This document shows, in pieces, positions 11,148 to 48,709 of a stretch of 64,000 nt of DNA (the stretch's first letter is position 1; every line of letters starts with the position of its first letter). The notes beneath the pieces were generated by a model. It worked only from the letters and a program-made list of their open reading frames with translations, had not been told where the DNA came from and ran no database searches. The DNA comes from an uncultured Planctomycetota bacterium (GTDB taxonomy: Bacteria > Planctomycetota > PLA2 > JAEUHO01). Location: contig CAVVXN010000004.1 of assembly GCA_963752285.1 (NCBI GenBank), positions 1 to 64,000 on the forward strand, given 5' to 3'. Position numbers and translations under genes: made by a program.

Positions 11148-11453
11148 GACTTCCTCTCCTTGCGGCGGTCCGACGACGGCCGTGGTCCCACGCCGGCCGG
11201 GGCACAGCCTCGACTCTCCTATCCTGGGGAGGCGGACCCGACCGCCGGCCGCGCGGTACCCACGCGCCGCCGGCCCGCTCTGCGGGGTGGGCGTCCAGGG
11301 ACTCCGGGCCCTCCTTGCCGTCGCCGATCCCGGGCCGCCGCGCGGGGCGCACCCGTCGGCACCGCGCTCGACGGCAAGGGCCGACGTCGGTTCGTCGGCT
11401 GCCGTGGGCGCGCCTCGCCACGGGGCCCCGCGCGGTCCACCACGACGACCGGC

Positions 11454-13526
11454 TCACTGCGCGGGATGGACGCCCAGCGAACCCAGGCCCTCCTCCCCGG
11501 CCAGGACCACCAGGCGGTCGCCGCGGCGGAGCACGTCGTGGGGGGAGGGGACGAAGCGCCGCACCGTGCCGTCGGTCTCGAGCCGCGAGACGGCGAGCAC
11601 CGTGATCCCGTGTTGCTCCCGGAGCCGGCTCTGCGCGAGCGTCCGCCCCTCGAGCTCGAGGGGGACGTCGATGTTCGCGAGCCGGTGGCGCTCGGGCATC
11701 TCGAAGTAGTCCACCTCCTCGGCGCCGCGCGCGAGGTGGGAGACCCGGGCGAAGAGCGCGCTCCGGCCGAGGATCTCGCGGTCCATCGCGCCGAGGATGT
11801 CCCGGCGCGTGATGATCCCGAGGAACCGGCACGTGTCGCGTCCGTCCACGACCGGGAGCTGGTCGAAGTCGCGGAGCCAGATCTTCCGATTGACGTCGGC
11901 GATCGACTCGTCGCGCAGGACGAATGGGATGCTCCGGAGGACGTCGCCGGCGATCACGGGCAGGGAGACGTCGCCGGTGCGCATCACGTCCTTCAGGTCG
12001 TGGAGGTCCACCACGCCGAGGTACCGCCCTTCGTCGTCGCCGACGAAGAGCACGGTGTTGCGCGTCTGGAGGAACGCATCGACCATCGCCTCCAGGGAGA
12101 GCGTCTGCGGCACGAGGGGGACGTCCCCCCGCATCAGGTCGCCCGCGCGGAGCTGCGTGAGCGCCGTCGCCTGGGGCGTGCCCTGCCAGTGGACGCCCGC
12201 CTCCCTCAGCTCCTCGACGTAGATCGACTCCCGCTCGAAGATGCGCGCGCCGGCGATCGCGACCGCCGACACGATCATCATCGGGAGGACGATCGACGGC
12301 TCGTCGGTCAGCTCGAACATCATGATGACGGCGAGGATCGGCGCGCGCGTGGTGGCGGCGAGGAGCCCGCCCATGCCGAGGAGGCCGTAGCAGTAGACGG
12401 GCGCGGTGAGGTGGGGGAAGAGCGCCTGGGCCCCGTGGCCGACGAGGCAGCCGAGGGTCGCCCCGACCATCAGGGCCGGGGTGAACACGCCGCCCACCCC
12501 GCCGGAGCCGATCGTGAGGCTCGTCGCGGCGATCTTCGCCACGCAGAGGGCCGCGATCGTGCCCACCGTCACCTTGCCGGCGAGGACGAGGTTCGTGCCT
12601 TCGAATCCGTTGCCCCAGACCTCGGGGAACCAGATCCCGATCGCGCCGACGCCGGCGCCCGCGACGAGCATGCGGAACTCGTCGCGCCATCCTGTCGCGT
12701 GGAACCAGCGCTTGGCCTGGCGCAGCATGCGCATGAAGAACACGGCGCCGATGCCCGCCGCGAGCCCGAGCGGGATGTACGGCAGGAACTCGAGCGCGGA
12801 CGTGATGCTGAACGGTTCCACCAGGTAGAGCGGAGCGTTTCCGAGCACCGCGCGCGTCGTCACGGACGACACGGCGGCCGAGACCACGACGGGGCCGAAC
12901 AGGGACATCGAGAACGATCCGACGATCAGCTCCATCACGAAGAGCGTCGCCGAGATGGGCGTGTTGTAGGCGCCCGCGACGCCCGCGGCCATGCCGCAGG
13001 CCACGAGGATCTGCCCGCGCTCGGGTGAGACCTTGACCTGCCGGGCGACGCCCGAGGCCGACGCGGCCGCCATCTGGATGATCGGGCCCTCGCGGCCCTC
13101 CGAGCCGCCCGTCGCGATCACGAGGAGCGACGAGAAGGTCCGGGCCAACGACTGTCGGAAGCGCACCGTGCGCCGGCCGACCGCCACGACCTCCATGATC
13201 TGCGCGATGCCCATCGTGCCGTAGATCCGGACGAAGCGACGCGCGATCCATCCCCCCGCGAACGCGCCCGTTGCGGGGAGCAGGATCGTCCACACGGGCG
13301 GCAGGCTGCGCCCGCCCTCGACGATGTCCTCGTGGCCCGTGAAGCCCTCCGTCAGGAGGTGGGTCAGCTCGCGGAAGACGATCGCGCCCACCGCGCCGAG
13401 GAGGCCGACGAGCACCGCGAGCGCGAAGAAGCTCGTGTTGGGGTCGCGCCAGTGGAGGCGGGCGAGACGCGGGACGGCGTCGTCCGCCGCGTCGGCCGGG
13501 GGGGCGGGGGACGCCGACGGGGTCAT
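11454..13526 (-). CDS. ClC-family chloride channel/antiporter with CBS pair and TrkA-C (RCK_C) domain
   Basis: GREGP and GGVFTP motifs, many TM helices, a CBS pair and a C-terminal GRTLAQSRLREQHGITVLAV. Confidence 0.92.
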   Translation of the reverse strand: MTPSASPAPPADAADDAVPRLARLHWRDPNTSFFALAVLVGLLGAVGAIVFRELTHLLTEGFTGHEDIVEGGRSLPPVWTILLPATGAFAGGWIARRFVRIYGTMGIAQIMEVVAVGRRTVRFRQSLARTFSSLLVIATGGSEGREGPIIQMAAASASGVARQVKVSPERGQILVACGMAAGVAGAYNTPISATLFVMELIVGSFSMSLFGPVVVSAAVSSVTTRAVLGNAPLYLVEPFSITSALEFLPYIPLGLAAGIGAVFFMRMLRQAKRWFHATGWRDEFRMLVAGAGVGAIGIWFPEVWGNGFEGTNLVLAGKVTVGTIAALCVAKIAATSLTIGSGGVGGVFTPALMVGATLGCLVGHGAQALFPHLTAPVYCYGLLGMGGLLAATTRAPILAVIMMFELTDEPSIVLPMMIVSAVAIAGARIFERESIYVEELREAGVHWQGTPQATALTQLRAGDLMRGDVPLVPQTLSLEAMVDAFLQTRNTVLFVGDDEGRYLGVVDLHDLKDVMRTGDVSLPVIAGDVLRSIPFVLRDESIADVNRKIWLRDFDQLPVVDGRDTCRFLGIITRRDILGAMDREILGRSALFARVSHLARGAEEVDYFEMPERHRLANIDVPLELEGRTLAQSRLREQHGITVLAVSRLETDGTVRRFVPSPHDVLRRGDRLVVLAGEEGLGSLGVHPAQ

Positions 13527-17367: not shown

Positions 17368-18714
17368 ATGCAGTTCCACGTCCTCTCGTTCGAGGGTCCC
17401 GACCCGTACGCCCGCGCGGGCGGCCTCGCGAGCCGCGTGGAGGGGCTCTCCGACGCGCTCGCGACGCTGGGCCACGAGACCCACCTCTGGTACGTCGGGG
17501 ACTCCGGTCTGCCGGGGCACGAGCGGCTCGGCAACCTGAATCGCCATCGCTGGTGCCAGTGGATCAGCCGCTACCACCCGGCCGGCGTGTACGACGGCGA
17601 GTGGGGGAAGCAGGCCGACTTCGCGTCCTCCCTCCCGCCGTATCTCGTCGAGGAGGTGCTGACGCCGTACCTCGCGACCGGTGGGCGGGCCGTCGTGATG
17701 GCCGAGGAGTGGCACACGGCGCACGCGGTCCTCCACTTGGACCACCTGCTCCGCGCGCGCGGCCTTCGGGACCGCGTCGAGATCCTGTGGAACGCCAACA
17801 ACACCTACGGGTTCGAGCACGTCCCCTGGCCGAAGCTCCTGGCGGCCAGCCGCATCACCACCGTGAGCCGCTACATGAAACAGCGTATGTGGGCGGTGGG
17901 CGTGGACCCGCTGGTCGTTCCCAACGGCCTTCCCACCGACGCCTTCGACGACCCCGACCCCCTGGCCGTCCAGGCGCTCCGCGCCCGGCTCCGGGACCGG
18001 ACGATCCTCGCGAAGCTCGCGCGGTGGCATCCCGACAAGCGCTGGAGCACCGCGATCGCCACCGTGGCCGAGCTGAAGGCGCAGGGATGGCGCCCGCTGC
18101 TCGTGGCGCGGGGCGGCAGCGAGCCGTACGGGGGCGAGATGCGCCTCCTGGCGCGTCGCGCCGGCCTGGTCTGGCGCGAGCGCACGCTTCGCTCGGTCGC
18201 CGTCGAGGACCTCCTGGCCGCCGTGGAGGGTCTCGAGGACGTGGACGTCGTGCACCTCGCGACGCACGTCGCGCCGACGCCGCGGCGCCTGCTCTTCGCC
18301 GGCGCCGACGCCGTGCTCGCGAACAGCGTGCACGAACCCTTCGGCCTCGTCGGACTCGAGGCGATGGCGGTCGGGGGCGTCGCGTGTACGGGGTGCTCCG
18401 GCGAGGACTACGTCCTCCCCGGCCAGAACGCATTGATGCTCGAGACCGACGACCCCGGCGAGTTCCGACAGCTCTATGGCGCGCTCCGCTCCGATCCGGG
18501 CGCCGAGGCCGCGCTCCGGCGCGCCGCGCGGTGGACCGCGCGCCGCTTCACCTGGGCCACCGTGCTCCGGCACGCCTTCCTGCCGCGGCTCGCGGCGCGC
18601 CCCGAGGGACGCCCGGCGCCGGATCTCCCCCCGCGGCGTCGCCGGACCGTGCTTCGTACGGAGCGCCCGGACCTCGCCGTCCGCCGCCCGCCGCCGGCGC
18701 TCTCCCTGCGGTGA
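17368..18714 (+). CDS. Glycosyltransferase family 4 (GT-B)
   Basis: AGGL near the N-terminus, VVPNGL and NSVHEPFGLVGLEAMAVG motifs. Confidence 0.9.
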   Translation: MQFHVLSFEGPDPYARAGGLASRVEGLSDALATLGHETHLWYVGDSGLPGHERLGNLNRHRWCQWISRYHPAGVYDGEWGKQADFASSLPPYLVEEVLTPYLATGGRAVVMAEEWHTAHAVLHLDHLLRARGLRDRVEILWNANNTYGFEHVPWPKLLAASRITTVSRYMKQRMWAVGVDPLVVPNGLPTDAFDDPDPLAVQALRARLRDRTILAKLARWHPDKRWSTAIATVAELKAQGWRPLLVARGGSEPYGGEMRLLARRAGLVWRERTLRSVAVEDLLAAVEGLEDVDVVHLATHVAPTPRRLLFAGADAVLANSVHEPFGLVGLEAMAVGGVACTGCSGEDYVLPGQNALMLETDDPGEFRQLYGALRSDPGAEAALRRAARWTARRFTWATVLRHAFLPRLAARPEGRPAPDLPPRRRRTVLRTERPDLAVRRPPPALSLR

Positions 18715-18795
18715 CGGGGCCGCGCGTCGCCGCGCGGCCCCCGCTCCTGCCGCCTGCCCTTCCGGCCTCGCGGCGGGCGCCGGACCGCTCGGAGG

Positions 18796-20214
18796 TCAGG
18801 CGGGCGCCACGTTCGGGTTCTGCCGGAAGAGGTTTCCCGGGTCGTACGCCTGCTTCACCCGGCGGAGGCGTGCGTAATTGGGGCCGTACGCCGCGGGAAC
18901 GCGCGCCGCCTCGTCCGCGGGCATGAAGTTCACGTACGCCCCGCCCGTCGCGAAGGGAGCGGCCGCGTCGAACATGCGCCGCGCCCAGGCGATCATCTCG
19001 GCGTCCTGCTTCGGGTCCTCCCAGCGCGTGTGCACGTTCATGACGAACTGGGCGTCGCGGTCGGCGTAGGCCGTGGCATCGGCGGGCACGCGTGCGATCG
19101 CGCCGCCGAGCTGGCCGATGAACACCTCGGACAGCGGGGACGGCAGTGTCGATGCGGCCTCGAGGACCACGTCGATGAACCCGTCCGACAGGTCGGCGAA
19201 GTCGTGCGACTTCCAGTAGTTCCTCGCGCCGGGCGTGAGGAGCGGGTCGAACGCCGTCTGGAACCCCGCGTAGGGACTCACCCCGACCACGTCGGCGATG
19301 GGCTCGCCGAGCGCGCGGTACGGGCGGGCCACGTCCTCGCCCTTCGCCGGGTCGCCCGCGTAGAGCATCGCGAAGACGAGCACGAGGCGTCCGTGCCACG
19401 CCTCGGGGAGGAACGGGAGGGGCGGCGCGTGGCGGAGGACCGACCACACCGCCAGCTCGTCGGGCGCCGCCTTCGCGAGCGTGCGGTACGTGCGGAGCAG
19501 GTCTCGGGCGGCCTCGATCGGGTGGACGACGAGCCCGCACAGCACGTCGGGCCCCACGGGGTGGAGCTCGAGCTCGAACTCGGTGACCACGCCGAAGTTG
19601 CCGCCTCCGCCCCGGAGCGCCCAGAAGAGGTCGGCATGCTCCTGCTCCGAGGCGCGGAGCGTCTTCCCGTCGGCCGTGACCACCTCCGCGGAGCGGAGGT
19701 TGTCGATCGTCAAGCCGAGGCTCCGGCTGAGCCAGCCGAAGCCGCCCCCGAGGGTCAGCCCGGCGAGCCCCGTCGTGGAGTTGATGCCGACGGGGACGGC
19801 GAGGCCGTGCGCCTGGGTGGCGCGGTCGAGGTCGGCGAGCGTTGCGCCCGGCCCCGCGTACGCGCGCCGCTTCACGGCGTTCACGCGGACGTCCTTCATC
19901 TGCGAGAGGTCGATCATGAGACCGCCCTCGCAGACGGCGTGCCCCGCGATGTTGTGACCGCCGCCGCGGACGGAGAGGCGCAGCCGGTGCTCGCGAGCGA
20001 GGCCCACGGCCCTCGCGACGCCCGCGGCGTTCCTGCACCGCGCGACGAGGCCGGGCCGGCGGTCGATCATCGCGTTCCAGATCGATCGGGCCTCGTCGTA
20101 GCCGGGGGCGCCCGGGAGCAACGCCTCGGCCCCGCCGTCGGCCCCCAGGGCCTTCACGGCGGCGTCGGGGACCTCGGTCTTCGTGCCGTCCTGTCGTACG
20201 AGCGAGAGTGCCAT
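18796..20214 (-). CDS. FAD-linked oxidoreductase (BBE-like)
   Basis: VRGGGHN, LFWALRGGGGNFGVVT and YVNF...KQAYDPGNLF motifs. Confidence 0.95.
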   Translation of the reverse strand: MALSLVRQDGTKTEVPDAAVKALGADGGAEALLPGAPGYDEARSIWNAMIDRRPGLVARCRNAAGVARAVGLAREHRLRLSVRGGGHNIAGHAVCEGGLMIDLSQMKDVRVNAVKRRAYAGPGATLADLDRATQAHGLAVPVGINSTTGLAGLTLGGGFGWLSRSLGLTIDNLRSAEVVTADGKTLRASEQEHADLFWALRGGGGNFGVVTEFELELHPVGPDVLCGLVVHPIEAARDLLRTYRTLAKAAPDELAVWSVLRHAPPLPFLPEAWHGRLVLVFAMLYAGDPAKGEDVARPYRALGEPIADVVGVSPYAGFQTAFDPLLTPGARNYWKSHDFADLSDGFIDVVLEAASTLPSPLSEVFIGQLGGAIARVPADATAYADRDAQFVMNVHTRWEDPKQDAEMIAWARRMFDAAAPFATGGAYVNFMPADEAARVPAAYGPNYARLRRVKQAYDPGNLFRQNPNVAPA

Positions 20215-32766: not shown

Positions 32767-32854
32767 CGCGTACGGATCCTCGACCGGGAGTGTTTCGGTT
32801 CGAATGGCGTCGCGCGGGGGGAGCGGACCGGACGGTGGGTCGCTCCTTGGGGCG

Positions 32855-33448
32855 TCATCGGTGGCACGTGTAGCAGTGGATCGGCGCCCGCGTCTTCTGC
32901 TCGGGCGGCGAGCCGGGCGGCGGCGGCTGCTTGTGGCAGTCGAGGCACCAGCCCATCTTCAAGGAGTGGACCCGGACGACCCGGTCCATCTTCTCGACCT
33001 CGCCGTGGCAGTCCACGCAGCTGAGGCCAGTCTTCGGGTTCAGGTGACGGCTGTGGTCGAAGTACACGAAGTCGGCGAGGTCGTGGACCTTTACCCACGG
33101 GATCGGCTCGTGCTTCGCGTCGTAGTCGAGGAGCTGCTGGACGTTCTCCTTGATCTCGCCGTTGGAGCCCTTGGGCTGGACCTCCTTGTGGCACTTCATG
33201 CACGTGGAAACCGGGGGGATGCCCGCGTGCGCGCCCTTCTCGGCGTTCGTGTGGCAGTAGAGACACGGGATCCGGTACTTCCCCGCCATCACCGAGTGCG
33301 GGAAGTACAGGGGCTGCGCGGGCTGGTAGCCCTCCTCCATGTTCGCCTGCCACAGCGCGTAGGTGCCGAAGGAGCCACCGAGGAGGAGCGAGAAGACGGC
33401 GGTGCCCAGGAAGACTTTGACCCGCCGATCGAACTTGCGCGTGAACAT
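32855..33448 (-). CDS. actA: ACIII pentaheme cytochrome c ActA
   Basis: Five CxxCH motifs (CLYCH, CMKCH, CVDCH, CLDCH, CYTCH) and an N-terminal TM. Confidence 0.95.
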   Translation of the reverse strand: MFTRKFDRRVKVFLGTAVFSLLLGGSFGTYALWQANMEEGYQPAQPLYFPHSVMAGKYRIPCLYCHTNAEKGAHAGIPPVSTCMKCHKEVQPKGSNGEIKENVQQLLDYDAKHEPIPWVKVHDLADFVYFDHSRHLNPKTGLSCVDCHGEVEKMDRVVRVHSLKMGWCLDCHKQPPPPGSPPEQKTRAPIHCYTCHR

Positions 33449-34118: not shown

Positions 34119-35213
34119 CTACACGACCTCGCGCAGGACCGCGCCCGACGCGAAGCCCGCGCCGAACGCGACGTCCAGCTCCAGGCGCGGGCGCGGGAGC
34201 GCCCCGTTTCGCGACGCGAGGTCCGCGTACGCCAGCGGGATCGAGGCCGCGGACGTGTTCCCGTAGCGGACGATCCCGTCCGCGTACACGCGCCCGGAGG
34301 GGACGCCGAGCCGCTTCGCCACCCGCTCGATGATCCTCAGGTTCGCCTGGTGGGGGATCACGAGGTCCACGTCGCCGATCCCGTACCGGCGACCCGTCGC
34401 GGCCTCGGCCCGGTCGAGCACGGCACGGACCTCGAAGACCATCGCGTCCACCGCGGCCTGGAACACGCGCCGCCCGTCCATGCGCAGGACCTGGACCGCG
34501 CGCCGGCCGCGGCCGGGCCCGTCGAGCGGCCGCGGGCCGTCCGGTCCCGCCTCGGTGTAGAGGAGGTCGCCGTGTCGCCCGTCCGCGCCGGTGTGCGCGG
34601 CGAGGATCCCGCCCGCCGCCACGTCGCCGAGGACCACGGCGCCGGCTCCGTCCCCGAAGAGGACGCACGTGGAGCGGTCGGTCCAGTCGGCGATGTGCGA
34701 GAGCGCGTCGGCCCCGACCACGAGCGCCGCGCGGCCCTCACCGTAGCGGTGCCGCTCGAGCCACATACGGCTCCACACGTCCTCGATCGCGTACACGAAG
34801 CCCGCGCAGCCCGCCTCCACGTCCGCCGCGGCCGAGCCCGCGATCCCGAGGGCGCGCTGCACCTGCGACGCCAGGCTCGGGAGCCGGTTCCACGTGCACG
34901 TGGCCACCCGGACCTCGCCCACGTCCTTCGGAGCCACGCCCGCCGCCGCGAGCGCCTGGCGGGAGGCCTCGACCGCCATCCCGAGGATGCTCTCGTCCTC
35001 GCCGAGTACCCGGCGCGACCGGATGCCCGTGCGCCGGCGCACCCAGGCGTCGTCCGACGGCACGAAGCGCGCGAGGTCGGCGTTGCTCCAGGCCGTCGCC
35101 GGGAGGCAGGCGCCCGTGCCGAGGATGCCGATCCGGAACGCGCCGGCCGCGCCGCTGCGGGCGGGACGGGCGGGTCGGACCGCGACCCGGTCGCTCTTGC
35201 CCCGAGAGACCAT
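34119..35213 (-). CDS. fabH: 3-oxoacyl-ACP synthase III (FabH family)
   Basis: Catalytic AGCAGF, PHQAN and GNTSAAS; RTGIRSRR; LFGDGAGA. Confidence 0.9.
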   Translation of the reverse strand: MVSRGKSDRVAVRPARPARSGAAGAFRIGILGTGACLPATAWSNADLARFVPSDDAWVRRRTGIRSRRVLGEDESILGMAVEASRQALAAAGVAPKDVGEVRVATCTWNRLPSLASQVQRALGIAGSAAADVEAGCAGFVYAIEDVWSRMWLERHRYGEGRAALVVGADALSHIADWTDRSTCVLFGDGAGAVVLGDVAAGGILAAHTGADGRHGDLLYTEAGPDGPRPLDGPGRGRRAVQVLRMDGRRVFQAAVDAMVFEVRAVLDRAEAATGRRYGIGDVDLVIPHQANLRIIERVAKRLGVPSGRVYADGIVRYGNTSAASIPLAYADLASRNGALPRPRLELDVAFGAGFASGAVLREVV

Positions 35214-35307
35214 GGGGGGATTCTCTCCGAAGGGGGGGCCACGAAGGCCGGCCCGGTCGCGACCGGACGCGTTCGGCCGACGCCCCCCCCGGGTAACCTC
35301 GGTCGGC

Positions 35308-36783
35308 GTGGAGCACCACCTGAGCACGCTCGGGGGCGCCTTGAACGTCCTCGTTCGCGAGGTCTTCGACGAGCTCGACCCGCAGCTCGAGGCCACGGCG
35401 CTCCTCGCCGCCCTCCCCGGGGACGAGGACGCGGGGCCCTCGTACCTGGTGACGTCCGGCGCGACGACGCGCGACCCCGAGGTCCTTCGCCCGCTCGCCG
35501 GCGCCGACGGGGCGGAGCCCGAAGGCGGGTCGGTGGTCCCGGGCGACGGGCCCGCGCGCGAGTGGGTCGCGGCCGACCGGCTGCGGCGCACGGTCGAGGA
35601 GGGGCTGCGGCGCGGCGAGGGTCCGGACGCGCTCCAGACGTTCGTCGGCGCGCCGCGCGGCCTCGGCCCGTACCTCGTCGCGCCCGCGCTCGAGCTCAAG
35701 GCCGGCATCTACCAGGCGTACTACGCGCTCCGCCGGCGGCAGGGCGAGGACGGGGCGCCGCTCGCGTCGTCGCTCCTCGACGCGGCGGTCACGGAAACGC
35801 TCCAGGCGGCCTCCGCGGCGATCTCCGACTACCGCCCGCGCGCCGACGAGTCCACCTCCGCGACCGCCGACGAGATCCTGCGCGCGGCGGGCCGCCGCCT
35901 CATGTGCGTTCCCGCGCACGCCGCGGGCTGCGTGGACGCGTCGCGGTTCTTCCAGGCGTGCGACCTGATCGCGAGCATGCGCTACGAGGGCGGCGAGGGC
36001 CACGGCCGCCTGATCGTCGCCGCGCGCGGCCACCCCGACGTCGAGGTCGTGCTGGAGTTCCACCAGCCGATCGACCTCGAGGACCGTCGCGGCGTGCGCA
36101 AGGTGCTCGAGCTCACCGGCGGCGACCTCTGCCTCCTGACGGACGCCGCGCGCGTGTTCGGGCTCGGGCGCACGACGGGTGCGTACGAGCGGCACGCGGA
36201 GAGCCTCTTCGAGGTCGAGGTGCTGGGGCACGCCACGTGGGAGCTCTCGCACGCCGATGCCGTCCTGATGCGGGTGCAGAACGGGCGCCCGCGCCTCGCG
36301 CGGAGCGAGATCGACGAGGACGAGTTTCGTGGGGGCCTCTCGCGGGCCTTCGGGCACGTCGAGCCGCGGCGCTTCGAGCGCCTGCTCGCGATCGCGATCC
36401 TGGCGATCCACCAGCGCCGCGGGACGACGGTGGTCGTGTCGGACGGCGCCCAGGCGGAGGCGCTCCGCCTCGGGAGCCAGGCCCTCAGGATCCGGCCCGT
36501 GCCGCTCTCGCCCGACACCGTCCCGCTCGTCACGGGCATCGACGGCGCCGTGCTCGTCGATCCCGAGGGCGTCTGCCACGCGATCGGCGTGATCCTCGAC
36601 GGCCGCGCGTCGCGCCGCGGCGACCCCGCCCGGGGCGCACGCTTCAACTCCGCCGTGCGGTACGTGGACGGGAGCGAGCACCGCGCGCTCGCCATCGTGA
36701 TCTCGGAGGAGGGCGGCGTGGACCTCATCGGTCCCGCCGTCGCGGCGCGGGCCCCGCCCGCCGCGAGCCCGGACACGGCGTGA
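35308..36783 (+). CDS. DisA_N/DAC (diadenylate cyclase-like) domain protein with N-terminal sensor region
   Basis: IDGAVL and GDPARGARFNSA...VISEEG motifs; start uncertain. Confidence 0.8.
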   Translation: MEHHLSTLGGALNVLVREVFDELDPQLEATALLAALPGDEDAGPSYLVTSGATTRDPEVLRPLAGADGAEPEGGSVVPGDGPAREWVAADRLRRTVEEGLRRGEGPDALQTFVGAPRGLGPYLVAPALELKAGIYQAYYALRRRQGEDGAPLASSLLDAAVTETLQAASAAISDYRPRADESTSATADEILRAAGRRLMCVPAHAAGCVDASRFFQACDLIASMRYEGGEGHGRLIVAARGHPDVEVVLEFHQPIDLEDRRGVRKVLELTGGDLCLLTDAARVFGLGRTTGAYERHAESLFEVEVLGHATWELSHADAVLMRVQNGRPRLARSEIDEDEFRGGLSRAFGHVEPRRFERLLAIAILAIHQRRGTTVVVSDGAQAEALRLGSQALRIRPVPLSPDTVPLVTGIDGAVLVDPEGVCHAIGVILDGRASRRGDPARGARFNSAVRYVDGSEHRALAIVISEEGGVDLIGPAVAARAPPAASPDTA

Positions 36784-36897: not shown

Positions 36898-37950
36898 CTA
36901 CCCGTTCGCGTGCGGACAGGAGGGGCAACCGCCCTCCTTCTTCGCCGGCCTGTCCGAGGGGCACGCACCGCCGGGGCAGCCACCCGAGTTCGGGCAGCCC
37001 CCCGACTTCGGGCAGTCGCCCGACTTCGGGCAGTCGCCGCAACCGCCGCCGTCGCCGCAGTGCCCGCCGCAGTGTCCGTCGCAGTGCCCGGCGCAGCCGC
37101 CGCACGCCCCGTCGCAGCCGCCGGCGCAGGGGCAGCCCGCGCACGCGGCCTCGGCGCGCTTCGCGGCGGTCGCCATCACCTTCTCGAAGCCGTCCGTGCC
37201 GACGAGCTTGGCGAAGTCGGGGCTCGCCTTCGTGCGGGCGAGGAGCGAGGCGAGGGCGCGGGGCGGGCAGGCCTGGAAGGCCGTTTCGAGCGTGCCGTTC
37301 GCCGCGACCCCGTCGCCGAGCCGCGCGTGCACGCGCGCGAGCTCGTAGCCGAGCGCGACGTCCTTCGCGTCCGTCTCGGGGAGCGTCGCGAGGTCCGCCT
37401 TCACCGCGTCCGACTTCCCGAGCCGTGCCCACGCGAGGTCCAGCTCCACCCGGACGGACGTGTCCTTCTGGCCCTCGCGAAGGCCGTCGAGGAAGGCCGC
37501 GGCCTCCTGGTCCTTCCCCATCTCGAGCAGCGTGTCGCCCACGAACGCGGCCGTGGACGCGGTGTCGGCCTTCTCGAAGGCGGCGCGGTCGAGCGCGAGC
37601 GCGTTGTTCCAGAGCTTCGCGTGGTGATAGAAGCCGTGGAGCTGGCCCACCTCGTTCTGCCAGGCGCAGCTCGGCTCGTCGTCCCGGACGGCCTTCTCCA
37701 GGTCGAGGACGTGGCCGAGCATCTTCGCCTGCCGCGTGATCGCGGCGTCGTCCGGATGGGCGGCGGCGAGGGCCACGTACGCGTCGTGCGCCTCGACGAT
37801 CTTGCCCTGTTCGAAGAGCGCGCGCGCCTGGGCGGCCGGGTCGGTCGGCGGCGGCGAGGCCGTGTCGGCGGCGAGCAGGCTCCGGGCGCCGAGGCCCACG
37901 GCGAGCACGGCGACGAGCGCAGCGGCGAGAACGGCGAGGCGTCGGGACAT
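36898..37950 (-). CDS. Secreted TPR-like protein with Cys/Gly-rich tail
   Basis: Signal peptide, helical repeats, and 17 Cys in the last ~82 aa; GGAG RBS. Confidence 0.8.
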   Translation of the reverse strand: MSRRLAVLAAALVAVLAVGLGARSLLAADTASPPPTDPAAQARALFEQGKIVEAHDAYVALAAAHPDDAAITRQAKMLGHVLDLEKAVRDDEPSCAWQNEVGQLHGFYHHAKLWNNALALDRAAFEKADTASTAAFVGDTLLEMGKDQEAAAFLDGLREGQKDTSVRVELDLAWARLGKSDAVKADLATLPETDAKDVALGYELARVHARLGDGVAANGTLETAFQACPPRALASLLARTKASPDFAKLVGTDGFEKVMATAAKRAEAACAGCPCAGGCDGACGGCAGHCDGHCGGHCGDGGGCGDCPKSGDCPKSGGCPNSGGCPGGACPSDRPAKKEGGCPSCPHANG

Positions 37951-38142
37951 GGGGTCTCCTCCCTGGGTCTTGGACGGGTTCGGGACCGACGGAGTCTACG
38001 AGGGGAGGCGGCAGCCGACGTCACGACCGGGGGGACGTCGGCCCCGCCCCCCCTCGCGCCTATGCTCCGCATCGTGAACGCCGATCCGGCCGATCCGTGC
38101 GATGTCGCCGCGGCGGCCCCCCGGGGGGACCCGACCGCGTGG

Positions 38143-38952
38143 GTGACCCACGTGGACACCCTCTTCGTCGTCGGCGCGCCCCGCAGCGGGACGACGTGGG
38201 TCCGGCGCCTGCTCCTCGACCTTCCGGGGGTCGTGGGCGGCGTCGAGTCCCACTTCTTCACCGCGCTCGGCCCGGCGCTCGTGAGCTACGACCTGACCGC
38301 GGCCTCCACACGTCGGATCGGACTCTCCCAGTACGTCCCGCGCGACGAGCTCGTGGGCGAGATCCGCCGGCTGTGGGGGCGCTGGATGGGCCCACTCGTG
38401 ACGGCCGCGCCGGACGCGCGCGTCCTCGTCGAGAAGACGCCCGGGCACGCGCTCCTCCTCGATCAGATCGTGGACGTCCTGCCCCGTTCGCGCTTCGTGC
38501 ACGTCGTTCGCGACGGACGGGCGGTCGTCGCGTCGCTCCTCGCGGCGGCCGAGGGGTGGGGGAAGGAGTGGGCGCCTCGTCGCACGCGGCACGCCGCGCG
38601 GCTCTGGGTGAAGCACGTCGAGGCCGCCCGCGCGGCGGGCGCCCGCCTCGGGCCCGAGCGGTATCTCGAGGTGCGCTACGAGTCGCTCCACGCCGACGCC
38701 GCGGCGCGGCTCCGGGAGATCGCGCGCTTCGCGGGGATCGAGGCCTCGGACGAGCAGGTCGCCCTGGCCGTCCGTCGCCACGACGCCGAGAACGTGCGCG
38801 CGGGGCAGGGGGGGGACGACTGGGCGGCCGAGCCGAAGGGGTTCCTCGGCGGGGCGACCCCGGAGGGCTGGCGTCGCCAGCTCACCTGGAGCCAGCGCGC
38901 GACCGTGTGGCGGCACGCGCGCCACGTGCTCCGGTCCCTGGGCTACCGGTGA
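38143..38952 (+). CDS. Sulfotransferase family protein
   Basis: PAPS-binding GAPRSGTT, EKTP, HVVRDGRAVVAS and VRYESL motifs; start uncertain. Confidence 0.9.
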   Translation: MTHVDTLFVVGAPRSGTTWVRRLLLDLPGVVGGVESHFFTALGPALVSYDLTAASTRRIGLSQYVPRDELVGEIRRLWGRWMGPLVTAAPDARVLVEKTPGHALLLDQIVDVLPRSRFVHVVRDGRAVVASLLAAAEGWGKEWAPRRTRHAARLWVKHVEAARAAGARLGPERYLEVRYESLHADAAARLREIARFAGIEASDEQVALAVRRHDAENVRAGQGGDDWAAEPKGFLGGATPEGWRRQLTWSQRATVWRHARHVLRSLGYR

Positions 38953-40757
38953 GCGCCGTGCCGAATCCCCGCGTCGGCGTTCCCAGACTCGTGCGTACCC
39001 GAATTCGCCTCGGCCTCCTCGTCGTCACCGGACTGCTCCTCGTTTCCGTGGACCTGTGGGCCGGGGACGAGCCCCCTTCGCCCGCGTCGCGGGTCTACGA
39101 CGTGGGCGCGCTCCTCGAGAGCCGGCCGGAAGGCGTGACGGGGCCGCTCGGGATCTTCCCGCGGGGCCAGGCGGCCGTGGAGCTGATCGACGAGGCGACG
39201 GGGACCGGGCTCTCGAACGGGGCCGTGCCGCCCGTCCCCTTCCTCGACGCGGCGACGCTCACCGAGCTCGTGCACACCTTCGTGACCGACCACGAGGGCT
39301 CGGCCTCGCTCGACGGGAGGTGGCTCCACGTCGAGGGACCGCCAGAGGTCCAGGCGCGCGCCGGGGCGTTCCTCGCCGGGCTCTGGCGTCTGGCGTCGCG
39401 GCGGGTGGACGTCGAAGCGGAGCTCCTCCGCGTGCCCGCGGAGGCGGTCGCGAAGCTCGACCCTGCGCTCCTCGCCGCCGTGCTCCGGGGGCGGCTCGAT
39501 CCCGACGAGGCGGCGGCGCTCCGCCGCGCCGCGAGCGCGCCGCGCCGCGGCACCGCCCGCGTGGCGCCGGGTCGCGTCGCGGTGGTCGGCGAGGTGGAAC
39601 GCGTCCGGTACGTCGCGGACTACAGCGTGGAGATCGCGCAGGCGTCGATCGTCGGGGACCCGGACGTCGAGGACCTCGATACCGGGTGGCGCGTCGAGGC
39701 GCGACCGCTTCCGCTCCTCGACGGGCGCGTGCTCTTGGAGGCCCACGTCGAGGCCGCGTCCCGCGACGGCCCGATGCGACGACTCGACCTCGGGGTCGCG
39801 CCCTTCGGAACGCTCGACATGCCGTCCTGCCGCGTCCTCCGCGCGTCGTGCCGCACGGTCACGGACGGCGTCGCGAGCCGCGTCCTCGCGCTCCGCGAGG
39901 CGTCCGGCGACCTGGTCGCGTTCCTCCTCCGCGCGACGCCGACGCCCGCCCCCGCCCCGACGACCGCGGGGTCCGCGCTGCCGTTCGATCGTCTGGACCT
40001 CCTCGCGCTCACGAGCGACCCGCGCGCGCTCGTCTTCGTGACCGTGCCCGACGACGGCTTCGCGCCGCGCCTCCTCTTGCGTGCGCCGGACCTCCTCGCG
40101 CCCGCGTCGGCGGACGGCCTCGCGTCGCGCCTCGAGGCGGCCGCGCCGGAGGCGTTCTCGGACGACGAGAGCGGCGTCGAGGCGCTGGGCGACGCCGTCT
40201 ACGTGCGCGGGAGCCCGGCGGCCCGCGCCGCGGCGCGCGCGCGCGCCCAGGAGCTCGAGGGGCGGGCGACGGGCGGCGCGCGGGTGACGCTCCGCCTCCG
40301 CGCCCGGAGCGCCGACGGCGCGCCCACGCTCCTCGCGGAGGCGGGCGCCGACCTCGCCGACGGGATCCCCGCGTCCCTCGTCCTCGGCCGCGAGCGCGCG
40401 TACCTCGCGGACTGGGACGTGGAGGTGGCGCAGGAGGCCCGGGTGGGCGACCCGATCGTGAAGACTCTCTTCGACGGCCTCGAGGTGGGCCTTCGCGCGA
40501 CCGCGACGCCGATCGAGGGAACGCACGCGCTGTCGCTCGAGCTGCGTTTCGTCACGGCATCGGACGCGCTCGCGGCCCGACCGACGGAGAACGAGTGCAC
40601 GGGCGACGTCGAGGTCCCCGACGCGCGGGAGGCGTTCGTCAGCGACGACCTCGTCCTGGAAGCGGGCCGGCCGACCGTGCGCGACGTAGGCACCCTCGCC
40701 GATGGCCGGCGACTGGAGCTCGAGATCGCGGTCACGCCGGAGCCGGAAGCACGTTGA
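38949..40757 (+). CDS. Secreted secretin-like protein with two internal repeats
   Basis: Signal peptide and RVYDV..L; two copies of YxADxxVExAQ....GDP.V..L..G; GTGA-coupled to the sulfotransferase. Confidence 0.65.
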   Translation: MSAVPNPRVGVPRLVRTRIRLGLLVVTGLLLVSVDLWAGDEPPSPASRVYDVGALLESRPEGVTGPLGIFPRGQAAVELIDEATGTGLSNGAVPPVPFLDAATLTELVHTFVTDHEGSASLDGRWLHVEGPPEVQARAGAFLAGLWRLASRRVDVEAELLRVPAEAVAKLDPALLAAVLRGRLDPDEAAALRRAASAPRRGTARVAPGRVAVVGEVERVRYVADYSVEIAQASIVGDPDVEDLDTGWRVEARPLPLLDGRVLLEAHVEAASRDGPMRRLDLGVAPFGTLDMPSCRVLRASCRTVTDGVASRVLALREASGDLVAFLLRATPTPAPAPTTAGSALPFDRLDLLALTSDPRALVFVTVPDDGFAPRLLLRAPDLLAPASADGLASRLEAAAPEAFSDDESGVEALGDAVYVRGSPAARAAARARAQELEGRATGGARVTLRLRARSADGAPTLLAEAGADLADGIPASLVLGRERAYLADWDVEVAQEARVGDPIVKTLFDGLEVGLRATATPIEGTHALSLELRFVTASDALAARPTENECTGDVEVPDAREAFVSDDLVLEAGRPTVRDVGTLADGRRLELEIAVTPEPEAR

Positions 40758-42316
40758 CGCGCGGGCGCGCGATGGCGGGGATCTTCCTCCTCGGGGCGGG
40801 CTTCGCCCTCGGGCCGCGGACCCTGCGTGCCGACGACGCGCCCGACCTGGCCCCGTGGCGCACGCTCGCGAGCGAGCCGCTCGACGTGGACCTCGACGCC
40901 GGGGACCTCGCGGAACGGACGAGCCTCGGCTACGCGGAGGCGTTCGCCCCGCCCGACCCCCTCCGGGACCCGGACGGGAGCCGCGCGGCGTGGGCACGTC
41001 CCTTCGCGACCGCCGTCGAGGCCTGGATCGAGGACCGGGTCCCCGCGGTGGACGACGCGGCGCGCCGGCGTCTGGCAGCCGACCTCCTGACCCGGATCGA
41101 CGTGGACGTGGAGGTCGAGGGCGCCGGCGTCCGCTGGCGGGGGACCGCGTCGGCGGCGCCGGGCCACGGGGTGGCCCTCGCGACCACCACGCGGCGGGCC
41201 TTCGTGACCGACGTCGACCCGGAGCTCGCGTGCGACAACTCCGGCGGGTTCGCCCCGTCCGCGCTGGGGAATCCCGTGGTGCGTCCGCTCGAGGACGGTG
41301 TGCGGGTCTTCGTGTGCCCGCACCTCGTCGCGGGCGGCCGGGTCCTCTTGGAGGCCGTCGTGGCGGCCGGCCGCTTCGAGCGACCCGTCCCCGCCGTCCC
41401 GACGGAGGCGCGCTTCCTCGGCACGCTCGACCTCGCGCGTTACGAGGGCGCGCTCGCGCGGATGTCCGGGACCGTCGGTCCCCGCGAGGCGCTCGAGACG
41501 AGCTTCTCCGCGGGGGCGCGGCGCCTCGCCGTCCACGTGACGGCCCGCGTCCGCGCGCCGGATCCCGGTGTTCCCGACGGTCCGCTCCGCGCGCTCGACG
41601 CGAGCGCGCTGGCCGCCTCCCCCATGGACGCGGTCCTCCTCCCCGCGACCCGGGGAGGGCTCACGCCGCGGCCGGGGACGGTCTCGTGGGAGCCGACGCC
41701 GCCGGCATGGCCGCCGGAGCGGCTGCTCGCCGCGCTTCGGCGCGCGCTCCCGGACGCGGACCTGGAGGTCTCGGCGCGCGGCCGCGTGTTCGTCGCGGGC
41801 GACGAGGCGACGATCGGGCGCGCGCGCGCCGCGCTCGCGGCGTGGGAGTCCCCGATCCTCCGAGGCGCCACGGTGCGCCTCGCGCTGCGCGCGGGAGACG
41901 ACGTCGTGGGCCGGGGCACGCTCGCGGCGCGCTCGGGCGACGTGGCGGTTCTCCGTCTGGGCGCCGATCGCGCGGCGATCGTGGACAGCGACCCCGAGGT
42001 GGGGTGAAGCATCCATATCGCGGACCCCCGGGTCGGGGTCCTCTTCGACGGCTGGCGGATCGTCGCGCGTCCCGAGGTCGGGCCGGACGCGCGCACGGTC
42101 CGCCTCGGGCTCGACGTCGAGCGACGCGCGATCCGGGCGGTGGAGACGCGGCGCGGGAACGGCGCGGCGCACGGCGTCCTCCACCTCCCGGACGAACGAG
42201 TCCTCTCCCGGCGCGCGGACGCGGTGCTCGCCCGAGACGACGTCCTCTCGTTGGAGCTCGGTTCGGACGAGGAGGGGCGTCCCCTCCGTCTCGAGGTCCG
42301 CGCGGGAGTCCGCTGA
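40754..42316 (+). CDS. Second secretin-like paralogue with in-frame UGA (putative selenocysteine) at 42005-42007
   Basis: Homology to the upstream paralogue continues in frame for 102 aa after the TGA (DSDPEVG-U-SIHIADPRVGVLFDGWRIVARP...LRLEVRAGVR*); SECIS-like hairpin at 42022-42041. Confidence 0.7.
42022..42041 (+). promoter_or_regulatory. Putative bacterial SECIS element
   Basis: GGACCCC-CGGGTC-GGGGTCC, a 7-bp stem starting 14 nt after the TGA. Confidence 0.65.
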
Positions 42317-42420
42317 GCCCGAGCGGCGTCGCGCGGCGCGTCCGTTCGCCTCGCCTCGCGCCGGCCCGTGGCACCGGCGCCGCGAGGTACCATCCCCCGA
42401 CCTCGCGAGGTGACGAGCGG

Positions 42421-43341
42421 ATGGCCGACCCCGAACGACCCAGCCCGGAGGACGAGCCGTGGGATCCCACGCGCACGGTCCGCATGCGGCCGGAGCGCCC
42501 GAGCGCGCCTCGTCGGGCCCGCGGCTCGCTGATCGTGATCCACGGCGGGGGACACGACCTCGGGCTCCACGCCGTGGTCGAGAGCGAGCTCGTCGTGGGG
42601 CGCGCGCCCGAGGCGGGCCTCCGGCTCCAGGACCTCGGCGTCTCGTGGCGCCACCTCCGGGTGCGGCGCGGCGCGGGCGAGGGCTACCTCGTCGAGGATC
42701 TCGGCTCCACGAACGGGACGCGGCTCGGCGACGACGACCTCCACGAGGCGCGCCCGCTCGCCGACGGGGACAAGATCTTCGTGGGGCAGACCGTCCTCCG
42801 GTTCGACCTGGCCGACGACCTGGACCTCGGCTACCAGACCGAGGTGGCGGAGATCGTGGGGACGGACCCGCTGACCGGGCTCGAGTCGAAACGCCGCTTC
42901 GACGACGCCCTCGCGAACGCGACCGACCTCGCGCGCCGCTCGAAGCACGACGTCGCCGTCCTGATGATGGACATGGACGGCGTGAAGCGGATCAACGACA
43001 CCCACGGCCACTTCTTTGGAGCGCACGCGATCGGCGAGACCGGACGACTGATCGCCGGGGTGCTCGGCGCCGCGGGACAGGCGTGCCGGTTCGGCGGCGA
43101 CGAGTTCTGCGCCTTCCTGGCGCCGTCCGACCTCCCGTCCGCCTGCGCCGTGGCGGAGCAGATCCGCACGACCCTGGAGGCGGCGGTGATCCAGAAGGAG
43201 GGGATCCGCCTCGCGCCGACGATCAGCATCGGCGTCGCCGCCGGGCCGACGGGGAACGAGGGCCCGGAGGACCTCGTCGCGCGCGCCGACGCCGCGCTGT
43301 ACCGCGCGAAGCGCGCCGGGAAGAACCGCGTCTCGGTCTGA
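42421..43341 (+). CDS. FHA-GGDEF diguanylate cyclase
   Basis: FHA motifs VGR, VSWRH and DLGSTNGT; DPLTGL, RFGGDEF, SIGVA and ADAALYRAK..GKNR. Confidence 0.95.
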   Translation: MADPERPSPEDEPWDPTRTVRMRPERPSAPRRARGSLIVIHGGGHDLGLHAVVESELVVGRAPEAGLRLQDLGVSWRHLRVRRGAGEGYLVEDLGSTNGTRLGDDDLHEARPLADGDKIFVGQTVLRFDLADDLDLGYQTEVAEIVGTDPLTGLESKRRFDDALANATDLARRSKHDVAVLMMDMDGVKRINDTHGHFFGAHAIGETGRLIAGVLGAAGQACRFGGDEFCAFLAPSDLPSACAVAEQIRTTLEAAVIQKEGIRLAPTISIGVAAGPTGNEGPEDLVARADAALYRAKRAGKNRVSV

Positions 43342-45411: not shown

Positions 45412-45670
45412 CGCGTCCCTGGCTACGCCGACCACGCGCCGCGGCGCGCCGGGCCTCCTCGGGGCCGCGCGATCGGGAAGCGAACGAGCGGGGACACGCC
45501 GGGCGCGCGCATGACGGCCGGACGATACCGCGTCCGGGCCCGAAAGGCCCGCATTTCGACGTGGCGCGGTCGGCGCGTGCCGCGCCGCGGCGCGCACCGG
45601 TCGGAAGATCGCCCGCTCCGCGGCCCCGAAGCCTCGCGTCCGCGGGTACGATCCGCCCGCCGGAGGTCCC

Positions 45671-45907
45671 ATGAAGATCCGCATCGAGTACTGCGCCGTC
45701 TGAGGCTACGAGCCGAAGGCCGTCGGTCTGACGGCCGTGCTCCTCGAGAACTTGAAGCAGCGGGTCGCGTCGCTGGAGCTGGTCCCCTCCGGTGGAGGGT
45801 GTTTCGAGGTCACGGTGGACGGCGAGCGGATCTGGTCGAAGCTCGAGACGGGCGAGTTTCCCGAGGAGAACGCGATCCTCGACGACGTGGCCGCGCGGGC
45901 CCGATGA
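45671..45907 (+). CDS. Rdx (SelT/SelW/SelH-like) selenoprotein, CxxU
   Basis: GGAGG RBS; MKIRIEYCAV-U(TGA 45701)-GYEPKAVGL...LVPSGGGCFEVTVDGERIWSKLETGEFPEE. Absent from the ORF track. Confidence 0.93.
45718..45736 (+). promoter_or_regulatory. SECIS element of the Rdx gene
   Basis: GGCCGTC-GGTCT-GACGGCC, 14 nt after the TGA. Confidence 0.8.
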
Positions 45908-47763: not shown

Positions 47764-47972
47764 GGCGTACCCCCCGGGCCACGACGCGCCCGCCGCTCGG
47801 CGTTCCGGGCGCGTCCCCCGAGGCGCCGGTTCCCGGTCCCGCGTTGCGGGGGCGCCGGGGCGGACGGCGGTACGCGAACCGGCGTACGCGCGCGGCGGCG
47901 GGCGGCGTTGCCCGCCGCCCGGGCCCCGTGTCGAATGAGCCGCGCCGCCTTGGCCCGGAGCCCGAGCTCACC

Positions 47973-48533
47973 GTGACCCGTTCGATCGCTTTCGCCCTCG
48001 TGGTCGGCTTCGCCCTCGCCGCGTGCGGGGGCGGAGGTGGAGGCGGGAGCGGAGGAGGCGGGCTCCCGACCGAGGTCGTCGCGGACTTCCACCTCCCGGA
48101 CGTCAACCCGAACAGCGCGACTTTCGGCGGGGAGGTATCGCCGCGCGATCACCTCGGGCGCGTGTCGGCCTGGTACTTCGGGCACGCGACCTGAAGCTAC
48201 TGTTCGAGCCAGTTCGGCTACCTGGACCAGATGGCGCAGGAGCTCGCGGCGGAGACGCCGCCGGCCCGCGTGGACCTTCTCGGCGTGAACGCGGTCGGGG
48301 AGGAGAGCGGGAACGCCTCGATCACCGACGGGCGGTCCATCCCCTGGCTCCAGGACGCGTCGTCGGAGAACGTGTGGACGTCGTGGGACGTCACGTACCG
48401 CGACGTCGTGATCCTCGGCGGCGCGAATCGACGGAACACGGTCTACAACCTGACCGAGCACGACCTCTCCGACCCCGCGAGCTACGCCGAGCTGAAGGCG
48501 CTCCTCCACGCCGCGGCCGCGGCGCTCCCCTGA
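47973..48533 (+). CDS. Thioredoxin-fold (AhpC/TSA/redoxin-like) lipoprotein selenoprotein, UxxC
   Basis: Lipobox LAA-C; DFHLPDVN..VSP......WYFGHAT-U(TGA 48192)-SYC. The two ORF-track pieces (47844-48194 and 48231-48533) are in the same frame. Confidence 0.88.
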
Positions 48534-48709
48534 CGGTCGGCCGCGCAGGCCCCGGGTCTTTCGGCCCGGCGGTCGGGAGCGCGTCGGGTGTCCGCCCGGC
48601 GCACCGCGGTAGGGTCCCGCGGACCGGCGCCGATCCCCCCCGATCGGCTCCTTCGGCCGCGGACGGGCGCCTGGCCCCGCGGCCACCTGTCGGGGAGGGA
48701 GGGTGGCCG

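Follow-up and report, generated by a model that had tools for sequence, protein, structure and literature searches.

A probable selenoprotein of a tandem secretin-like protein family in a Planctomycetota bacterium

Results and discussion

The interrupted gene and its upstream paralogue

The window considered here, a stretch of 64,000 nucleotides (nt) from an uncultured Planctomycetota bacterium (assembly GCA_963752285.1, contig CAVVXN010000004.1, positions 1 to 64,000 of the forward strand), carries two adjacent paralogous genes for secretin-like proteins, the second of which is interrupted by an in-frame TGA. Our analysis indicates that this second gene, called the target hereafter, very probably encodes a true selenoprotein, the UGA at 42005-42007 being decoded as selenocysteine (Sec, U). 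The features of the gene pair are as follows.

38949..40757 (+), upstream paralogue P0007, 602 amino acids (aa), tandem secretin-like, with Gln at both gate-apex sites (DYSVEIAQ and DWDVEVAQ)
40754..42316 (+), probable selenoprotein gene (the target) with an in-frame UGA, ending at TGA 42314-42316; 514 aa from ATG, 520 aa from TTG
41003..41641 (+), secretin-like module 1, about residues 78-290 (ATG numbering), with helices, the strand 'RIDVDVEVEG' and long beta-hairpins
41231..41233 (+), site 1, codon TGC of Cys154; the loop 'ELACDNSGG' forms the tip of the long hairpin of module 1 (strands 134-153 and 163-185)
41714..42313 (+), secretin-like module 2, about residues 315-514, containing the UGA; from AlphaFold2 (AF2) secondary structure and internal repeat alignments
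42005..42007 (+), site 2, UGA probably read as Sec, U412 from ATG and U418 from TTG, at the turn of the long hairpin of module 2 (strands 392-410 and 415-436)
42008..42316 (+), post-UGA stretch of 102 codons and the terminal TGA, encoding the last four long strands of module 2
42022..42041 (+), hairpin resembling a selenocysteine insertion sequence (SECIS), with 5' arm GGACCCC (42022-42028), loop CGGGUC (42029-42034) and 3' arm GGGGUCC (42035-42041)

The initial annotation of this stretch had reported an open reading frame (ORF) stopping at TGA 42005-42007 with the same frame open for 102 further codons (42008-42313), and this was found to be so. The peptides that it had set against each other as repeats, DSDPEVG-U-SIHIADPRVGVLFDGW, DWDVEVA-Q-EARVGDPIVKTLFDGL and DVDPELA-C-DNS, are likewise all present as quoted. 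The internal repeat of the target protein was recovered by BLASTP, the site of the second repeat falling opposite the Cys of the first, and the alignment of paralogue and target gave 30% identity.

The G+C content of the window is 72%, so that open frames alone are uninformative, and the G+C content at third codon positions (GC3) was chosen to locate the true frames. In the frame of the target, GC3 amounted to 0.90-0.96 upstream of the TGA, with values of about 0.8 at first positions (GC1) and about 0.55-0.65 at second positions (GC2). Beyond the UGA it was 0.90 in the 300-nt segment starting at 42000 and 0.83 in the segment starting at 42150, and the signal switched to another frame only at about 42300, near the next in-frame stop (TGA 42314-42316). 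TGA has its normal role of stop codon in the window, since the target, the upstream paralogue and the Rdx gene described below all terminate with it; a reassignment of TGA (genetic codes 4 or 25) was dismissed for this reason. A scan of 38700-42700 for promoters and terminators returned nothing, and a scan of the window at Rfam gathering thresholds returned a tRNA-Pro only.

Two start codons are available to the target, TTG 40754 and ATG 40772, the latter being used in the database entry of the gene (P0003, 411 aa, ending at the UGA). The stop codon of the paralogue (TGA 40755-40757) overlaps the TTG in the sequence TTGA, and TTG 40754 is the probable coupled start of the target gene. The overlap belongs to a chain of three genes at 36910-42316 (+) joined by 4-nt overlaps, in which the gene for a Sulfotransfer_3 protein, with its end at 38952, runs into the GTG start of the paralogue (38949, GTGA) and the paralogue into the TTG start of the target (40754, TTGA). 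These overlaps suggest translational coupling of sulfotransferase, paralogue and target.

Conservation on both sides of the UGA codon

A word-indexed search with the read-through protein retrieved, besides the window's own entry P0003, an uninterrupted homologue of 520 aa (P0004). In BLASTP, the read-through protein (residues 105-517) and P0004 aligned without a break across the UGA (35% identity, E=3e-43), and a Cys of P0004 stood opposite U (DHDVEVG-C-FVQIADPEV versus DSDPEVG-U-SIHIADPRV). A genome scan for orthologues, in which 430 pattern matches were examined, led to one confirmed locus, a 21-kb locus from a metagenome-assembled genome of Planctomycetota (L001). The orthologue found there is 36% identical to the target and has TGA 10931-10933 at the homologous codon (DVDAEVA-U-GMTISAPWMGVYFDGW), beyond which the frame runs for 102 codons up to a TAG with its coding signal kept. 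Identity between target and L001 was 35% for the post-UGA pieces (E=3e-10) and 36% upstream of the UGA, both sides thus being equally conserved. The search for orthologues with TGA or Cys at this codon, proposed in the initial annotation, had therefore yielded both, TGA in L001 and Cys in P0004. The gene order, with a paralogue followed by a gene of the Cys/Sec type (C/U subfamily), is common to the window and L001; the paralogue is the sole conserved neighbour, and the sulfotransferase is absent upstream of the L001 pair.

A profile search of the family gave 1008 cluster representatives (50%-identity clusters) at E<=0.001, the best 150 of which were used; the resulting 150-row alignment consisted of the query and 149 representatives, the window's own truncated entry P0003 being excluded. 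The column of site 2 contained Gln in 93 rows, Cys in 14 (13 genuine Cys residues and the U of the query, read as C) and Glu in 11, while 22 rows had another residue, a gap or too short a sequence. In the remaining 10 rows, all of them cluster representatives other than P0003, the protein stops directly before site 2, in ...EVG or ...EVA. A profile built from these truncated forms gave four matches, two of which were new (P0156 and P0157); they also end at site 2 and look, from their sequences, like close relatives of representatives already counted. Altogether, at least 13 database entries of the C/U subfamily appear to be cut off at the UGA.

In a maximum-likelihood tree inferred from the region common to all forms, one state change was enough to account for the 11 representatives ending at site 2. 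The branch uniting them had a support of 65/74 and the group was present in 61% of the bootstrap trees, with terminal branches of 0.3-1.0 substitutions per site. Judged from these comparisons, a stop kept at one codon across such divergence is not a recent accident, because the divergence is long and the coding sequence after the stop is conserved wherever DNA is available.

These data bear directly on the possibility that the TGA is a plain stop, brought about by a nonsense mutation, an assembly error or the decay of a pseudogene, the following 102 codons being an untranslated remnant. Such an origin would agree with a TGA that is one base away from the TGC/TGT of the Cys homologues, and with the database entry, which calls the gene as a protein of 411 aa. 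However, a TGA occurs at the same codon in the 36%-identical orthologue of another organism, ten more cluster representatives end at the same column and form one group with long branches, and conservation after the UGA equals that before it, with GC3 kept at 0.90. Moreover, the hairpin downstream of the UGA is held at the same offset despite two-sided changes in its stem (see below). A plain stop is thus extremely improbable.

A second alternative is a split gene, in which the UGA would end a protein of 411 aa and the last 102 codons would form a separate small subunit completing the fold in trans. In L001 an ATG does lie two codons past the TGA, and the downstream piece is annotated there as a protein of 101 aa. 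In the window, by contrast, the first in-frame ATG, GTG or TTG after the UGA is GTG 42140, 45 codons further on, and a separate product starting at this codon would lack the second strand of the gate hairpin. The Cys homologues are single chains with their Cys exactly at the break, and a conserved hairpin is needed for Sec decoding but not for re-initiation. A profile of the post-UGA piece matched, in the word-indexed search, the 101-aa ORF of L001 only, so that separate C-terminal ORFs of other orthologues were not recovered by this search. On these grounds a split gene is considered very unlikely, and decoding of the UGA within a single product is the preferred reading.

The hairpin downstream of the UGA

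The initial annotation had described a 7-bp hairpin 14 nt past the UGA, and this hairpin was found at 42022-42041 with the loop CGGGUC. Its 7-bp stem follows a spacer of 14 nt (42008-42021), the distance from UGA to loop is 21 nt and the predicted free energy (dG) is -13.5 kcal/mol. The consensus for bacterial SECIS elements (bSECIS), as given in a passage of a recent review, comprises a loop of 3-9 nt, a stem of 4-16 bp, a G among the first two loop bases, a UGA-to-loop distance of 16-37 nt and a minimum free energy <= -7.5 kcal/mol (PMC13188914). All of these constraints are satisfied by the hairpin of the target and by that of its L001 orthologue.

The L001 hairpin (GGCGCCC/UGGAU/GGGCGUC) has 7 bp including one G-U, starts 14 nt after the UGA and has a UGA-to-loop distance of 21 nt and a dG of -12.8 kcal/mol. 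From target to L001, one side of stem pair 2 is altered (G-C to G-U), and both sides of pairs 3 (A-U to C-G) and 4 (C-G to G-C). The loop is of 6 nt in the target and of 5 nt in L001; this difference of one base puts the 3' arm in a different codon register. The structure has thus persisted across divergence of the nucleotides and of the residues that they encode (ADPRVGVL versus SAPWMGVY). This comparison was read from the individual arms, as MAFFT/RNAalifold left the loops ungapped and the 3' arms out of register, which made the consensus meaningless.

All three UGA sites compared (target, L001 orthologue and Rdx gene) display a hairpin of 7-8 bp located 14 nt after the UGA, with dG values from -12.8 to -13.5 kcal/mol. 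No comparable hairpin was found at the 14-nt offset at six homologous sites without UGA, namely Cys154 of the target, the corresponding Gly of L001 and the four Gln sites of the two paralogues, where the best stems had 4-7 bp, offsets of 8-12 nt and dG values from -2.3 to -8.6 kcal/mol.

The background frequency of such hairpins was estimated with a criterion of 7 bp, at most one G-U and a G within the first two loop bases. Among the 936 TGAs of the window (any frame, both strands), 16 were followed by such a hairpin at 11-17 nt and six at exactly 14 nt; at 13-15 nt the figures were 11/936 in the window and 5/410 in L001. When a hairpin at 13-15 nt was combined with a dominant open coding frame on both sides, a combination judged by eye against the GC3 signal with no fixed cut-off, five TGAs remained: those of the target, of the Rdx gene and of three L001 genes. 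The hairpin alone is a modest signal, and the weight rests on the comparative data.

Other selenoprotein genes and the case for Sec decoding

Three further genes with an in-frame UGA at a redox position were found in the two loci.

45671..45907 (+), window, SelT/SelW/SelH (Rdx) selenoprotein gene with the motif CAVU; UGA 45701-45703, hairpin 45718-45736
11253..11618 (+), L001, ArsC/Spx-family gene with the motif U-S-D-C; in-frame TGA 11292 in place of the codon for the N-terminal redox Cys, followed after 14 nt by an 8-bp hairpin
18282..19346 (+), L001, AhpC/TSA redoxin gene with the motif W-U-P-G-C, exported; in-frame TGA 18486, hairpin 13 nt downstream

The Rdx gene had been pointed out in the initial annotation as lying 3.7 kb away with a like geometry, in agreement with our data: its TGA at 45701 is 3696 nt from that of the target and its hairpin (GGCCGUC / GGUCU / GACGGCC) begins 14 nt after the UGA. 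It scored 69.4 bits against TIGR02174 (CXXU_selWTH), for which the cut-off is 34.2, and the presence of this gene indicates that the source organism decodes UGA as Sec. In L001, reading through the UGA of the AhpC/TSA gene turns a Pfam match limited to the C-terminal half of the domain into one of full length. The ArsC/Spx-like gene begins 10 nt past the stop codon of the target orthologue, with which it may form a possible 'selenoprotein neighbourhood'; its scores lie under the curated NCBIfam cut-offs. Both organisms appear, from these genes, to use Sec, and their SECIS elements appear to share one geometry.

Several observations weigh against Sec decoding in the target. The hairpin criterion alone is satisfied by 1.2-1.7% of TGAs. 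The 60-nt stretch after the UGA was no more stable than its shuffled versions (z = +1.14; 176/200 shuffles at least as stable), although such energy z-scores are unremarkable in sequence of 72% G+C and were not used as support. Rfam E-value scans of 41950-42120 and 45650-45820 returned chance-level matches only; since the second region holds the Rdx gene, a positive control that also remained without a match, Rfam is unable to judge these hairpins. Among the 13 proteins ending at site 2, TGA has been established from DNA in two. Finally, none of selA, selB, selD and tRNA-Sec was found within the 64-kb window or the 21-kb L001 locus.

The last point could be taken in favour of a selenium-free read-through, in which a near-cognate tRNA would insert Trp, Cys or Arg at the UGA with the aid of the hairpin, the mixture of truncated and full-length products serving as regulation. 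Downstream hairpins are able to stimulate stop-codon read-through generally. Against this stand the textbook CxxU/UxxC selenoprotein genes of both loci, which have the same spacer of 13-14 nt and a hairpin, and the homologous residue, which is Cys in 13 relatives and never Trp or Arg; furthermore, the hairpin fits the bSECIS model. Read-through of this kind is accordingly held to be most unlikely. The view expressed in the initial annotation that the UGA is a genuine Sec codon was strengthened by the aligned Cys, the TGA orthologue, the 12 further proteins ending at the codon, the conserved hairpin and the other selenoprotein genes.

For the target, the hairpin 14 nt past the UGA would then act as a bacterial SECIS and recruit SelB with Sec-tRNA(Sec). 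Sec would be inserted at codon 412, and translation would continue for 102 codons, completing module 2 and giving a full-length protein of 514-520 aa.

Family affiliation and relation to secretins

Searches of Pfam and NCBIfam (release 20.0) at E<=0.01 assigned no family to the read-through protein, to P0004 or to the L001 orthologue, and the upstream paralogue was equally without a Pfam or NCBIfam match. Among 60 relatives, three touched PF00263, the best with E=1.7e-4. The 1008 cluster representatives mentioned above thus uncover a large family of tandem secretin-like proteins without a Pfam or NCBIfam model.

The relation to secretins came from profile and structure comparisons. The AF2 model of the target, calculated from the 150-row alignment with Cys substituted for U, had a mean predicted local distance difference test score of 87.1 and a predicted template modelling (TM) score of 0.86. 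It displayed two similar modules, each predicted to comprise helices, then a short hairpin and then several strands of about 20 residues. In a Foldseek search against the PDB, 11 of the 13 matches at E<=0.001 were secretins (BfpB, GspD, InvG, ExeD, XcpQ and pIV), with PilQ next at E=0.001; the secretin matches had probabilities of 0.96-1.0 but TM-scores of 0.17-0.28. Positions 90-283 of the family profile matched residues 252-487 of the BfpB secretin chain (9u5s) with E=2.2e-15, in a region spanning the N3 helix, the first barrel strand, gate 1 and the conserved G-x-x-L-x-V-x-P motif, and module 2 gave a weak profile match to PilQ (6w6m, E=0.0034). An ESM Atlas search with P0004 retrieved Secretin clusters in second and third place (0.91), behind an unnamed cluster of mostly planctomycetal proteins; among entries of known taxon in this atlas, the tandem secretin-like family is commonest in Planctomycetota. 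The label 'secretin-like' given in the initial annotation is supported by profile and fold searches, though the target itself matches no Pfam family.

On the basis of these profiles and of the predicted structure, each module would be remotely homologous to the N3-plus-secretin domain of outer-membrane secretins. The same data suggest that the family is a remote, tandemly duplicated branch of the secretin superfamily and no ordinary secretin. The likeness to known secretins (BfpB, GspD/PulD/XcpQ, PilQ, InvG and phage pIV) lies in the profile and Foldseek matches, in a predicted strand plan that would fit a barrel of four strands per subunit and in the putative signal peptide. Secretins have a single C-terminal secretin domain, whereas two tandem modules per chain were found in the target and in its sister family of about 570-620 aa; in the target family neither an N0 domain nor a match to the Pfam Secretin model was found. 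Secretins are encoded with type II or type III secretion, type IV pilus or filamentous-phage systems, while the target has its paralogue as neighbour in both loci instead, and the apex of its gate 1 carries Sec or Cys. Secretins form homo-multimeric rings of 12-17 subunits in the outer membrane. As to export, the hydrophobic N-terminal stretch of the target is MTRGRAMAGIFLLGAGFALGPRTLRA; the N termini of all three orthologues look like signal peptides when judged by eye, and the target is probably exported.

A putative gate apex and its two co-varying sites

In the profile alignment, the column of the family that is occupied by Q, C or U coincides with Q401 of the BfpB chain. The deposited chain has 535 residues and its domain boundary E305 corresponds to chain residue E288, an offset of 17, in a protein that is lipidated at Cys18. 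With this offset, chain residue Q401 is UniProt residue 418. According to the passages available of the cryo-electron microscopy report on BfpB, gate 1 covers residues 406-430 and its flexible tip residues 411-426 (PMC12114550). Residue 418 falls within gate 1, and this alignment would place the apex of the gate-1 hairpin at the Sec in module 2 and, in module 1, at the conserved Cys of an enlarged loop (ACDNSGG).

Sites 1 and 2, which lie 258 residues apart in duplicated modules (C154 and U412), vary together. Cys occurs at site 1 in 17 of the 18 C/U-subfamily sequences that cover this site, the exception being L001 with Gly; the 17 comprise 15 sequences from the site-pair table, two of them read by eye since the script pattern had missed the Cys, together with P0156 and P0157. 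In rows where both sites are present, a Cys at site 1 pairs with Cys at site 2 (8 rows, including the U of the window) or with a stop (7 rows) and never with Gln, and conversely a Cys or stop at site 2 pairs with Cys at site 1 in 15/16. The far larger sister family, which includes the gene directly upstream of the target, has Gln at both apices, and the Gln/Gln pair was counted in 73 rows. P0133 (632 aa), a distant relative whose long branch lies outside the main C/U group, shows the Cys motifs in swapped modules, with DHDTEVGC in module 1 and DYDVELAC in module 2.

Because a strictly coupled pair of Cys and Sec (or Cys) replaces Gln/Gln, the most economical reading of these sites is a selenylsulfide lock or a metal site. 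The initial annotation had suggested a Cys-Sec bond between the repeats that might act as a redox gate; the apex alignment and the pairing of the two sites speak in its favour, the Gly at site 1 of L001 against it. After export, the protein would form a secretin-like ring, perhaps or even probably mixed with the Gln/Gln paralogue. In such a ring the gate-1 apices would converge on the axis, the Cys and Sec apices of modules 1 and 2 alternating side by side. Reversible selenylsulfide linkage of these residues, or their binding of a soft metal or metalloid, could then make the gate responsive to redox state or to a ligand. Taken as a whole, this would amount to a new class of outer-membrane pores, characterized by tandem modules, by a pair of Gln/Gln and Cys/Sec paralogues and by a gate with Se-S links or a soft-metal site. 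The proposal, drawn from sequence comparison and from the predicted model, is put forward as a speculative and rather unlikely one. If true, selenium chemistry would for the first time be seen to gate a channel, and a selenoprotein to use Sec for gating and not for enzyme catalysis.

Some of our results speak against a gate and in favour of another view of the same selenoprotein, in which the apices would be the catalytic or metal site of a monomeric or periplasmic beta-sandwich sharing only ancestry with secretins. These are the low TM-scores to secretins and the duplicated architecture, which to our knowledge is shown by no solved secretin. In addition, Pfam scans of all ORFs with coding signal in the 64-kb window and in L001 revealed no genes of type II or type III secretion, of type IV pili or of filamentous phage. 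Gly instead of Cys at site 1 in L001 also shows that the Cys-Sec pair is not universal and that a Cys partner in the same chain is not obligatory. On the other side, the match to BfpB takes in N3 helix, first barrel strand and gate 1 together with the G-x-x-L-x-V-x-P motif, the four long strands of each module suit the secretin barrel plan and sites 1 and 2 co-vary strictly. A selenoprotein without a gate is thus a serious minority possibility.

Comparison with known selenoproteins

The bacterial selenoproteins known are nearly all thiol-type oxidoreductases or metal-centre enzymes with a local CxxU or UxxC motif. The target shares with the thioredoxin-fold CxxU/UxxC selenoproteins (SelW/Rdx, Prx-like and ArsC-like) the UGA, the spacer of 13-14 nt, the GC-rich hairpin of 7-8 bp with a G in the first two loop bases, and the exchange between Cys and Sec. 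It differs from them in having neither a thioredoxin fold nor a CxxU/UxxC motif, its own motif (EVG-U) being located at the turn of a long beta-hairpin.

Comparison with known selenoprotein families was based on Pfam and NCBIfam models and on a review table, families defined solely by cd or PTHR identifiers being outside the scan. Table 1 of this 2026 review lists 119 prokaryotic selenoprotein families, none of them secretin-like (PMC13188914). The nearest by location are the TonB-dependent receptor of FCYXU type (NF049945) and the GSU2204 MtrB/PioB-family beta-barrel (NF041027) (PMC13188914). Both are envelope beta-barrels predicted to hold Sec and as such represent a precedent for Sec in exported barrels. 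Their folds and families are unrelated to those of the target, where a gate-type hairpin of a multimeric-pore family carries the Sec and the likely partner Cys is found 258 residues away in the duplicated module, with no local CxxU.

The literature searches brought up one secretin-type domain in a selenoprotein, a Prx-like selenoprotein fused, according to a legend, to a Secretin_N-like domain; the Sec of this fusion would belong to the Prx-like part and not to a secretin gate, and in sources represented by excerpts the search leaves absence from print unproven. In the passages available of the deep-Sep and BSepDB papers, the terms 'secretin' and 'Planctomyc' do not occur. A literature search linking selenocysteine, Planctomycetota and selenoprotein gave unrelated papers only, which likewise leaves absence from print unproven. 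The suggestion made in the initial annotation of a new selenoprotein family in a secretin-like protein agrees with the BfpB profile match (E=2.2e-15) and with the fact that no known selenoprotein family model matched. What departs from the standard is the family that carries the Sec, the place where it sits and its likely Cys partner far along the chain, not the mechanism of decoding. In the target, Sec occurs in a setting new for this residue, where a long beta-hairpin turns in a secretin-related and probably exported protein, with the likely partner Cys in an internal duplicate. If confirmed, the family would extend the range of selenoproteins and would open to experiment the question whether redox state or a bound metal can lock or open a secretin-type gate.

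Rejected candidates and other genes of the window

Two further stops were considered as Sec codons and rejected. TGA 16747 (+) is an ordinary stop, the hairpin 11-12 nt downstream being intergenic and terminator-like; the stretch 16747-16790 (+) consists of the TGA and then the hairpin GTCCTCCGG..CCGGAGGAC, in the intergenic gap ahead of a CBS-domain gene. The in-frame stop at 4098-4100 (-) is not a TGA and lies between two ORFs with different Pfam domains, which are most likely two adjacent genes.

Upstream of the gene pair, 34747-36780 (+) encodes a protein with a DAC domain (c-di-AMP synthase) and DACNG/DACNH sensor domains, and directly downstream of the target, 42409-43341 (+) encodes an FHA-GGDEF protein; the pair is thus flanked by second-messenger genes. 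A respiratory cluster occupies 21300-33000 (-). It encodes a cytochrome c oxidase (COX1, COX2, COX3, COX4_pro and SCO1) as well as multihaem cytochromes and genes like those of alternative complex III (ActD, NrfD and a molybdopterin/4Fe-4S subunit). An IS110-family transposase (DEDD_Tnp_IS110 and Transposase_20) is encoded at 5969-7135 (+), and the product of 47939-49312 (+) has a C-terminal phage tail collar domain (PF07484, E=1.6e-28) after a coiled-coil-like region.

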